DNA of 64,000 nt from Octopus vulgaris (taxonomy: Eukaryota), in assembly GCA_951406725.2 (NCBI GenBank), contig OX597815.1, forward strand, positions 67,022,001 to 67,086,000. Reading direction: 5' to 3'. This document shows, piece after piece, positions 32,312 through 32,807 of this stretch (position 1 is its first letter; each line of letters begins with the position of its first letter). The notes beneath the pieces were generated by a model. It searched no databases and was not told the DNA's origin. It saw only the letters and a program-made list of their open reading frames with translations. A program made the translations under genes and the position numbers.

Positions 32312-32807
32312 AACAATGATAAATCTCAGAGCGAGTTATAAACAGTAGCGGTAACACATCGTGACACATATTTGCCATTTGAATATGGCTAACCCCTAAG
32401 GGTGGATGCTACTGTAGTTTGTAGCCCCAGGAAGATATCTTCTCCAGCTGGCTATAGACGCACTATCTGTGTCCTCTCAGTATTTGTGAAGGGGAGTCAT
32501 CCTCCCCGCCTTCAACTCATGATACACACGGACCCGAGTTTCAAGGTGTTTACCTTTCATCAGCGTGTGACAATCATGGTTGTCGACGAGAAGTCAGCTC
32601 CCTTCACAAATACATATACTTTTTCCAGTGTCGATTGACACTGATATTGAAAAAGTGAAATCAAACAATGATAAATCTCAGAGCGAGTTATAAACAGTAG
32701 CGGTAACACATCGTGACGCATATTTGCCATTTGAATATGGCTAACCCCTAAGGGTGGATGCTACTGTAGTTTGTAGCCCCAGGAAGATATCTTCTCCAGC
32801 TGGCTAT
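32312..32807 (-). mobile_element. Retrozyme-like non-autonomous element: 352-bp unit, 144-bp terminal direct repeats
   Basis: 32312-32455 equals 32664-32807 with 1 mismatch. Internal canonical hammerhead; flanked by (TA)n. Confidence 0.82.
32525..32569 (-). ncRNA. Type I hammerhead ribozyme (canonical core)
   Basis: CACACG-CUGAUGA-AAGGU AAAC ACCUU-GAA-ACUC GGGU-C-CGUGUG; GUC cleavage site. Confidence 0.9.

Follow-up and report, generated by a model that had tools for sequence, protein, structure and literature searches.

A Hammerhead Retrozyme Family of Octopus vulgaris with a Penelope-Type Insertion Footprint and a Resident L1/Tx1-like LINE

A stretch of 64,000 nucleotides (nt) of the Octopus vulgaris genome (assembly GCA_951406725.2, contig OX597815.1, forward-strand positions 67,022,001 to 67,086,000; hereafter, the window) contains 1.41 units of a 352-nt repeat, with a hammerhead ribozyme motif on the minus strand. 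The family to which this repeat belongs is almost certainly a retrozyme lacking long terminal repeats (non-LTR retrozyme), a known kind of element, and it is very probably mobilised in the fashion of Penelope-like elements (PLEs). The window copy is probably a dispersed, 5'-truncated member of the family, whose RNA, likely circular, would have been copied into an (AT)n microsatellite by PLE enzymes. The family also hosts a long interspersed nuclear element (LINE) of the L1/Tx1 type, inserted at one position of the unit.

Organization of the Window Copy

Monomer positions are counted from window position 32530 (the first base past the predicted cut), descending along the minus strand and wrapping from 32312 to 32663; monomer positions 173, 219, 294, and 352 thus equal window positions 32358, 32312, 32589, and 32531. 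A preliminary description, based on the sequence alone, had reported 1.4 tandem units with 144-nt direct repeats and a period of 352 nt. This holds, with 99% identity between the repeats, as do all 17 of the quoted helices and motifs that were checked. The unit has the features of a retrozyme (non-coding, about 150–450 nt, GC below 50%): its GC content is 43%, and the longest stop-to-stop frame inside the element has 81 codons, in line with the earlier remark that there is no open reading frame (ORF) of note. The copy carries a single hammerhead and terminates at the long one of the two 3'-end sites described below. Tandem Repeats Finder, applied to the window, did not pick up the unit. The parts of the insertion and its target are as follows.

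32312 to 32807, minus: entire insertion, 1.41 units, subfamily A, with the RNA-sense 3' end at 32312 and 5' truncation at 32807 (repeats, end mapping)
32312 to 32455, minus: terminal repeat, 3'-end copy, 144 nt (direct-repeat comparison)
32664 to 32807, minus: terminal repeat, second copy; resembles a pseudo-LTR, and is a product of the partial tandem (direct-repeat comparison)
32525 to 32569, minus: type I hammerhead, predicted cut at 32531/32530 (motif, subfamily covariation)
32532 to 32539, minus: palindromic stem III; 2 bp and a tetraloop in the monomer, an 8-bp duplex in the dimer (sequence, folding)
32480 to 32613, minus: imperfect rod prolonging stem I (folding, covariation)
32625 to 32656, minus: side hairpin (folding, covariation)
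32349 to 32479, minus: branched hairpin domain containing the short 3'-end site (folding)
32358, minus: short 3'-end site of the family, monomer position 173, read through in the window copy (end mapping)
32312 to 32357, minus: 43–46-nt 'tail' that separates the short 3'-end site from the long one (end mapping)
32250 to 32311, no strand: (AT)n microsatellite, the insertion target (sequence, end mapping)
32570 to 32589, minus: target site of the L1/Tx1-like LINE, unoccupied here and duplicated upon insertion elsewhere (junction comparison)

Insertion Ends

Searches covered the organism's own genome (2.8 Gb), and exact patterns were checked against reversed controls. The 3' motif of the family (monomer positions 155–173) has 554 matches genome-wide, and the insertion ends were mapped at all 66 unselected loci (73 clusters) behind the first 100 of them. 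Two sites about 45 nt apart hold 100 of the 110 outer 3' ends, 51 of these being short (positions 165–178) and 49 long (208–228), with 10 elsewhere; the 5' ends are scattered. The copies are thus not permuted at random; their 3' ends are fixed, and only the 5' ends vary. DNA of at least 85% A+T adjoins 89 of the 100 ends at the two sites. Among the 37 inverted insertions, six have an unclassed end, and every one of the 31 classifiable copies pairs one long with one short end, none being long with long or short with short. An eye count of the same first 100 motif matches gave 44 that end at position 173, joined to AT-rich DNA, and 56 that continue. Directly ahead of the junction, TAT replaces GAT in 24 of the 44 ending copies versus one of the continuing ones, an excess that suggests priming through short pairing with (AT)n. 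The short site may be regarded as a presumptive start of reverse transcription.

PLE insertions are described as carrying a tail, a 30–40-bp extension that is frequently present at one end only (PMC8557442). In the in vitro work on an Anolis PLE, this tail is presented as bounded by a pair of internal start sites, and the targets as AT-rich (PMC11167929). The retrozyme displays the same set of features, namely two 3' ends bounding a tail, a one-sided tail in inverted copies, AT-rich or microsatellite targets, 5' truncation, and inversion. This end footprint, common to the retrozyme and PLEs, supports the Penelope-type mobilisation that had been proposed from the window alone.

A Co-Resident Penelope-like Element

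Some 130 nt behind one retrozyme copy (locus L037/L076), and on the same strand, lies the start of a decayed PLE frame. It led to a very young PLE family, with 112 scored matches, many of which have an unbroken 775-codon frame. Its near-identical copies consist of a 4271-bp tandem unit encoding reverse transcriptase (RT) and GIY-YIG domains, and the family is apparently active. Judging by its sequence, a Cys motif precedes the nuclease, as in the Neptune/Nematis elements described in PMC8557442. Copies of this PLE end in (AT)n at unit positions 2000 and 2040–2046, which lie 143 and about 185 nt past its own minimal hammerhead. Of eight inverted pairs, the five that could be scored all combine a long and a short end, one anchor being missing in the other three. 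As the footprints of the retrozyme and the PLE agree without homology, the mechanism matches, and from this we infer the identity of the carrier: the 4271-bp family may well be the one that moves the retrozyme. The PLE fragment beside L037 was also considered as the parent of the retrozyme and rejected, having no sequence in common with it, a distinct untranslated region (UTR), and a minimal hammerhead of its own. The young 4271-bp PLE itself, as seen at locus L158 (G000:C8:53365500-53375400), is a two-ORF element; stem III of its minimal hammerhead is palindromic, and it has two fixed (AT)n ends.

Hammerhead Motif and RNA Fold

The canonical minus-strand hammerhead of the preliminary description was recovered with correct stems and covariation between subfamilies. 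It comprises CUGAUGA (32563–32557), GAAA (32542–32539), and GUC before the predicted cut, with 6 bp in stem I, 5 bp in stem II, and 2 bp plus a UCGG tetraloop in stem III. The latter, formerly called loop-less, is self-complementary across 8 nt; such a short stem with a tetraloop is described as typical of invertebrate hammerheads (PMC7229834). A loose hammerhead pattern gave 13 matches in the window versus 6.3 expected (10 of 100 shuffles had as many), which is chance level, and none on the opposite strand inside the element. Rfam returned no hammerhead in the window at the gathering threshold or at E ≤ 10, and none in 11 further loci. Neither scan singles out the motif, so the ribozyme call rests on the correct stems and on covariation across subfamilies, from which self-cleavage of the unit is predicted. 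Many of the genome-wide matches to the subfamily A core have GUA replacing GUC as the cleavage triplet.

Folding energies of the 352-nt unit are −128 kcal/mol for a linear molecule (z −6.4, equalled by none of 100 shuffles) and −122 kcal/mol for a circle (z −6.6, none of 60), with 66% pairing. The long rod reported earlier is indeed present, and it spans only about 134 of the 352 nt, the remainder being branched. In computed folds, stem III formation costs the monomer 1.6 kcal/mol, a dimer duplex gains 8.9 kcal/mol, and the lowest-energy monomer fold pairs away the catalytic CUGA (−13.6 versus −7.3 kcal/mol for the active fold). These energies and the hidden core favour cleavage aided by stem III–stem III dimer pairing, followed by a quiet circle, as modelled here and as likewise argued in PMC4209133. 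The initial claim that the motif folds only as a dimer was too strong: the palindrome is conserved and favours dimers, but comparable hammerheads of coral and mussel retrozymes are reported to cleave as monomers (PMC7229834), and 'dimer only' is, therefore, not established.

Family Size, Subfamilies, and Covariation

The genome search with the unit, one of the checks proposed at the outset, yielded 2156 candidates, the 40 scored ones being 97–100% identical, and showed that the locus is not single-copy. The exact core of the window copy occurs 49 times, and intact A and B cores number at least 669, with no match to the reversed control in either case. Four subfamilies (A–D) were distinguished, with identities to A of 87% (B), 67% (C), and 71–73% (D, four loci), and an overall similarity among the four of 66–87%. 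The folding z-score is −7.1 for subfamily B and −4.0 for subfamily C. The head-to-tail period is 350–353 nt in 68 of the 69 spacings below 500 nt (overlapping loci counted), with no coding insert, and the tandem arrays of subfamily B reach 4.83 units per arm. The family thus has what defines retrozymes: a type I hammerhead with a conserved core in each unit, and genomic tandems with two or more hammerheads.

For covariation, 22 monomers chosen as full-length (eight A, seven B, and seven C) were aligned to the window copy's own fold. Of the alignment cells, 88.8% can pair, versus 38–45% in slid controls, and 17 of 117 pairs are altered on both sides, versus 1–11 in these controls. The compensatory changes are located in the rod, in stem II (three pairs), and in the catalytic C3-G8/U3-A8 pair. 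C and D have U3-A8 in place of C3-G8; PLE hammerheads are reported to show this covariation as well (PMC4209133). Stem III is spelled ACUCGGGU in A, ACUCGAGU in B, ACUAGU in C, and ACUGCAGU in D; all are self-complementary, and the central swap between B and D is explicable only by an intermolecular helix.

Circular or Linear Template

Relative to the cut site, 42 arms of the end map cross it, five stop within 10 nt, and 59 are shorter. The crossing arms exclude, as template, a linear monomer cut at this site. An accumulation of 5' ends there, which would be a sign of in vivo cleavage, was looked for among these arms and was not found. Of 16 loci of subfamily B, five carry, in all the units read, a variant that none of the remaining sampled loci has, and at L183 (five units) and L190 (six units) such private variants occupy both inverted arms. 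Four of these variants are not at CpG sites, and the fifth is a CpG transversion. They point to one monomer sequence re-read several times, most simply from a circle, although exact template jumping or a homogeneous source array outside the sample are possible sources of such arrays. Contigs from four sequencing runs that are presumably RNA span the unit piecewise and are uninformative on ends, strand, and circles. On sequence evidence, a circular template is likely, and the proposal of reverse transcription around a 352-nt circle is favoured by the private variants and by the arms that cross the cut site.

An L1/Tx1-like LINE Inserted in the Retrozyme

Two same-strand retrozyme copies 5.7 kb apart, and another pair 3.4 kb apart, were considered as pseudo-LTRs flanking an ORF. 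Both candidates were rejected, there being no long ORF in the second pair and a LINE in the first. This LINE is a 5.3-kb L1-superfamily element, with an ORF1 containing a CCHC knuckle and an ORF2 combining APE, RT, and zf-RVT domains. The closest relative of ORF2 among solved structures is human L1 ORF2p, and a homolog search gave 21 proteins, none with an informative name. Given this architecture, we tentatively take the element to be of the Tx1 type.

Among the 21 closest LINE 3' ends (at least 92% identity), 20 join the retrozyme at monomer position 294, 59 nt before the cut site. One of the next nine joins the homologous subfamily C site, bringing the total to 21 on target out of 30 examined, and a second subfamily C case turned up in the subfamily comparison. 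The junction pattern has 19 matches, one being a chance match to a different LINE. Retrozyme sequence flanks 14 near-full copies on either side, with a duplication of 17–20 nt; at one off-target copy, the duplication is a separate one of 13 nt. The loci concerned are L061, L063/L078, L077, and L110–L127, and L120 retains a 1146-codon frame.

Independent insertions are indicated by rare variants common to both duplicated target copies (L077 and L118), by a truncated and tandem insertion (L124), and by the occurrence in three host subfamilies. Hitch-hiking is indicated as well: at L113, L114, L116, and L122, the upstream target is absent and the LINE shows PLE-style truncation or inversion, and the LINE tree groups by host subfamily (four changes versus 9.1 when shuffled; bootstrap not settled, and L078 joins a B-like retrozyme copy). 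More than 20% of the copies thus sit at one target, the threshold for target specificity given in PMC4494074, though hitch-hiking partly inflates this share. With high probability, the LINE is specific for its retrozyme site. The insertion site keeps a complete hammerhead 59 nt downstream, and L061, L077, and L125 have an upstream one too, where cleavage at both would set free a monomer containing the LINE.

At L123, the LINE has a subfamily B retrozyme upstream and a subfamily A one downstream, which suggests 5' carry-over or template switching. A sister LINE family (L104–L109, 88% at the 3' end) joins another fixed motif, without a match in Rfam, in six out of six copies, some of them about 13 kb apart in tandem. 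Tx1 families that target other transposons are known (PMC4494074). The literature consulted, which excluded most subscription journals and Repbase, contained no retrozyme-targeting LINE, no cephalopod retrozyme, and no joint mention of 'retrozyme' and 'Tx1'. Repbase or Dfam may already contain these families.

Proposed Life Cycle

Transcripts of loci with two or more hammerheads would be cut to 352-nt monomers, probably via pairing of the stem III palindromes, and a host ligase would join the monomers into circles. A PLE protein, whose footprint is observed, would then nick (AT)n and begin copying at either of the two RNA sites, about 45 nt apart and half a unit from the cut site; where both DNA ends are primed, one at the long and the other at the short site, an inverted copy would result. 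Copying would pass the cut site and circle the template for 0.1 to about five units until a random stop, after 1.41 units in the window copy. Finally, as the junctions suggest, the LINE would enter one site of the rod with a 17–20-nt duplication, and the LINE–retrozyme composite could then travel by PLE-type mobilisation. A three-tier system can be entertained tentatively, in which an active PLE protein would recognise circular hammerhead RNA without homology and copy it in rolling-circle fashion from two fixed sites, and in which the LINE would have adapted to a target directly ahead of the hammerhead. Flanking hammerheads could then excise and circularise a 5.7-kb RNA with the LINE in it, which would provide the LINE with processed ends and an additional means of spreading.

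Several observations weigh against this life cycle. No similarity between the retrozyme (A, B, and C) and the PLE was detected (best BLAST E 0.18, local scores within the shuffle range), hence no sequence shared with the pseudo-LTR of an autonomous PLE, in a comparison with one PLE family among 20238 candidates; Xenopus retrozymes, by the account of a preprint (bioRxiv 2026.07.22.740005), do resemble pseudo-LTRs. Within-arm divergence in subfamily A (2.8%) is similar to that between loci (3.3%), which says little about a single template. The count of doubly changed pairs is no better than in letter shuffles (92 of 500), and covariation drawn from three subfamilies reflects few evolutionary events. 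Given the clustering of the LINE tree, the 20 junctions stand for fewer than 20 independent events, and the most stable monomer fold is the inactive one.

That last point would also suit a template consisting of an uncut linear multimer transcript, or of linear monomers joined by exact template jumping, where the circle is unneeded and the hammerhead dispensable for insertion. Anolis PLE hammerhead mutants are indeed reported to insert normally, uncut RNA being the main substrate (PMC11167929); the autonomous octopus PLE forms tandems as well, and retrozyme arrays reach nearly five units per arm. Nevertheless, private variants in all the units of an array would require re-multimerisation from one monomer, the core and palindrome have been maintained by covariation over 30% divergence, and retrozymes of other metazoans are reported to build up in circular form (PMC7229834), which makes a linear template improbable.

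Still less probable is a reading of the unit as the pseudo-LTR of some as yet undetected autonomous PLE, with the copies as truncated remnants. All the insertion features are PLE features, and both the Xenopus resemblance and the PLE frame behind the L037/L076 copy would fit, but the regular period leaves no room for a coding insert, no ORF with RT and GIY-YIG domains lies between the repeats, and the PLE neighbouring L037 has a different UTR and a minimal hammerhead. The possibility that the unit is just the LTR of an autonomous element, raised in the preliminary description, is answered by the same absence; relatives throughout the genome and tandem arrays bear out its assignment to a non-LTR retrozyme family.

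A short interspersed nuclear element (SINE)-like origin, with mobilisation by the associated LINE, would explain their tight physical association; it is largely excluded by the end maps and very improbable, as the LINE lies inside the unit and makes 13–20-nt duplications, whereas the retrozyme shows (AT)n junctions, two start sites, inversions, and no common 3' end with the LINE. Just as improbable is endogenisation of a viroid-like RNA capable of autonomous replication, a type of replicon with an RNA-only cycle, ribozymes usually on both strands, and no DNA phase: size, pairing, and hammerhead agree, and the term 'viroid-like' remains apt for the shape, but hundreds of DNA copies, four age-graded subfamilies, the GC content, the lack of an opposite-strand hammerhead pattern, and the lack of any sign of RNA–RNA replication speak against it.

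Neighbouring Sequences in the Window

Another repeat adjoins the 5' end of the retrozyme (32808–33036), with two 85-nt copies, 79% alike and 144 nt apart. At 32085–32120 (minus), a minimal hammerhead-like motif lies between microsatellites, in a different repeat that probably derives from Penelope. An 880-codon open frame at 15382–18024 (plus) reads like a LINE endonuclease-RT, and a weak tRNA match (29.7 bits) at 35528–35598 (plus) is possibly a SINE head.

Comparison with Known Systems and Significance

The metazoan non-LTR retrozymes described in PMC7229834 (coral and mussel, 350–390 nt; axolotl, 330/350 nt) resemble the octopus unit in being non-coding, about 350 nt long, and poor in GC, with highly paired monomers repeated head to tail and a type I hammerhead whose stem III is short and palindromic. 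Unlike them, the octopus copies are mostly short and dispersed, inversion is frequent, the 3' ends fall at two fixed sites and adjoin (AT)n, and the unit hosts a site-specific LINE; octopus circles and cleavage are predictions from sequence. With the PLEs (Anolis PAc, PMC11167929; Neptune/Nematis-type and non-autonomous Chlamys/MRC1 elements, PMC8557442), the retrozyme shares partial tandems, an inverted 5'-truncated arm, a tail at a single end, AT or microsatellite targets, and a hammerhead within the repeat. It differs from them by the absence of an ORF, by a canonical rather than minimal hammerhead, and by the lack of detectable similarity to the co-resident PLE. An identical partnership is proposed for vertebrate retrozymes as non-autonomous PLEs (bioRxiv 10.64898/2026.07.22.740005), argued there from co-occurrence and pseudo-LTR homology, whereas the octopus case is argued from a footprint without homology; the same preprint speaks of only limited evidence on the retrozyme life cycle. 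The LINE, in turn, is like the target-specific Tx1 LINEs of PMC4494074 (Tx1L into Tx1D, Tx1-Mar into Mariner-N4, Keno into U2) in its single site, L1-superfamily membership, multicopy target, tandem re-insertion, and target duplication, and unlike them in that the target is a ribozyme-bearing retrozyme and the composite apparently moved again by the PLE route.

Mobilisation of animal retrozymes has so far been proposed, not shown. What appears to be new here is a fixed-end footprint matched to an intact partner, together with a site-specific LINE, and the retrozyme would behave like a non-autonomous PLE. The presence of a young retrozyme and an intact PLE in one genome, with a shared and precise footprint, opens trans-mobilisation to an in vitro PLE assay. 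A LINE aimed at a ribozyme-bearing retroelement would, moreover, extend the target choice of Tx1 elements to a catalytic RNA parasite.
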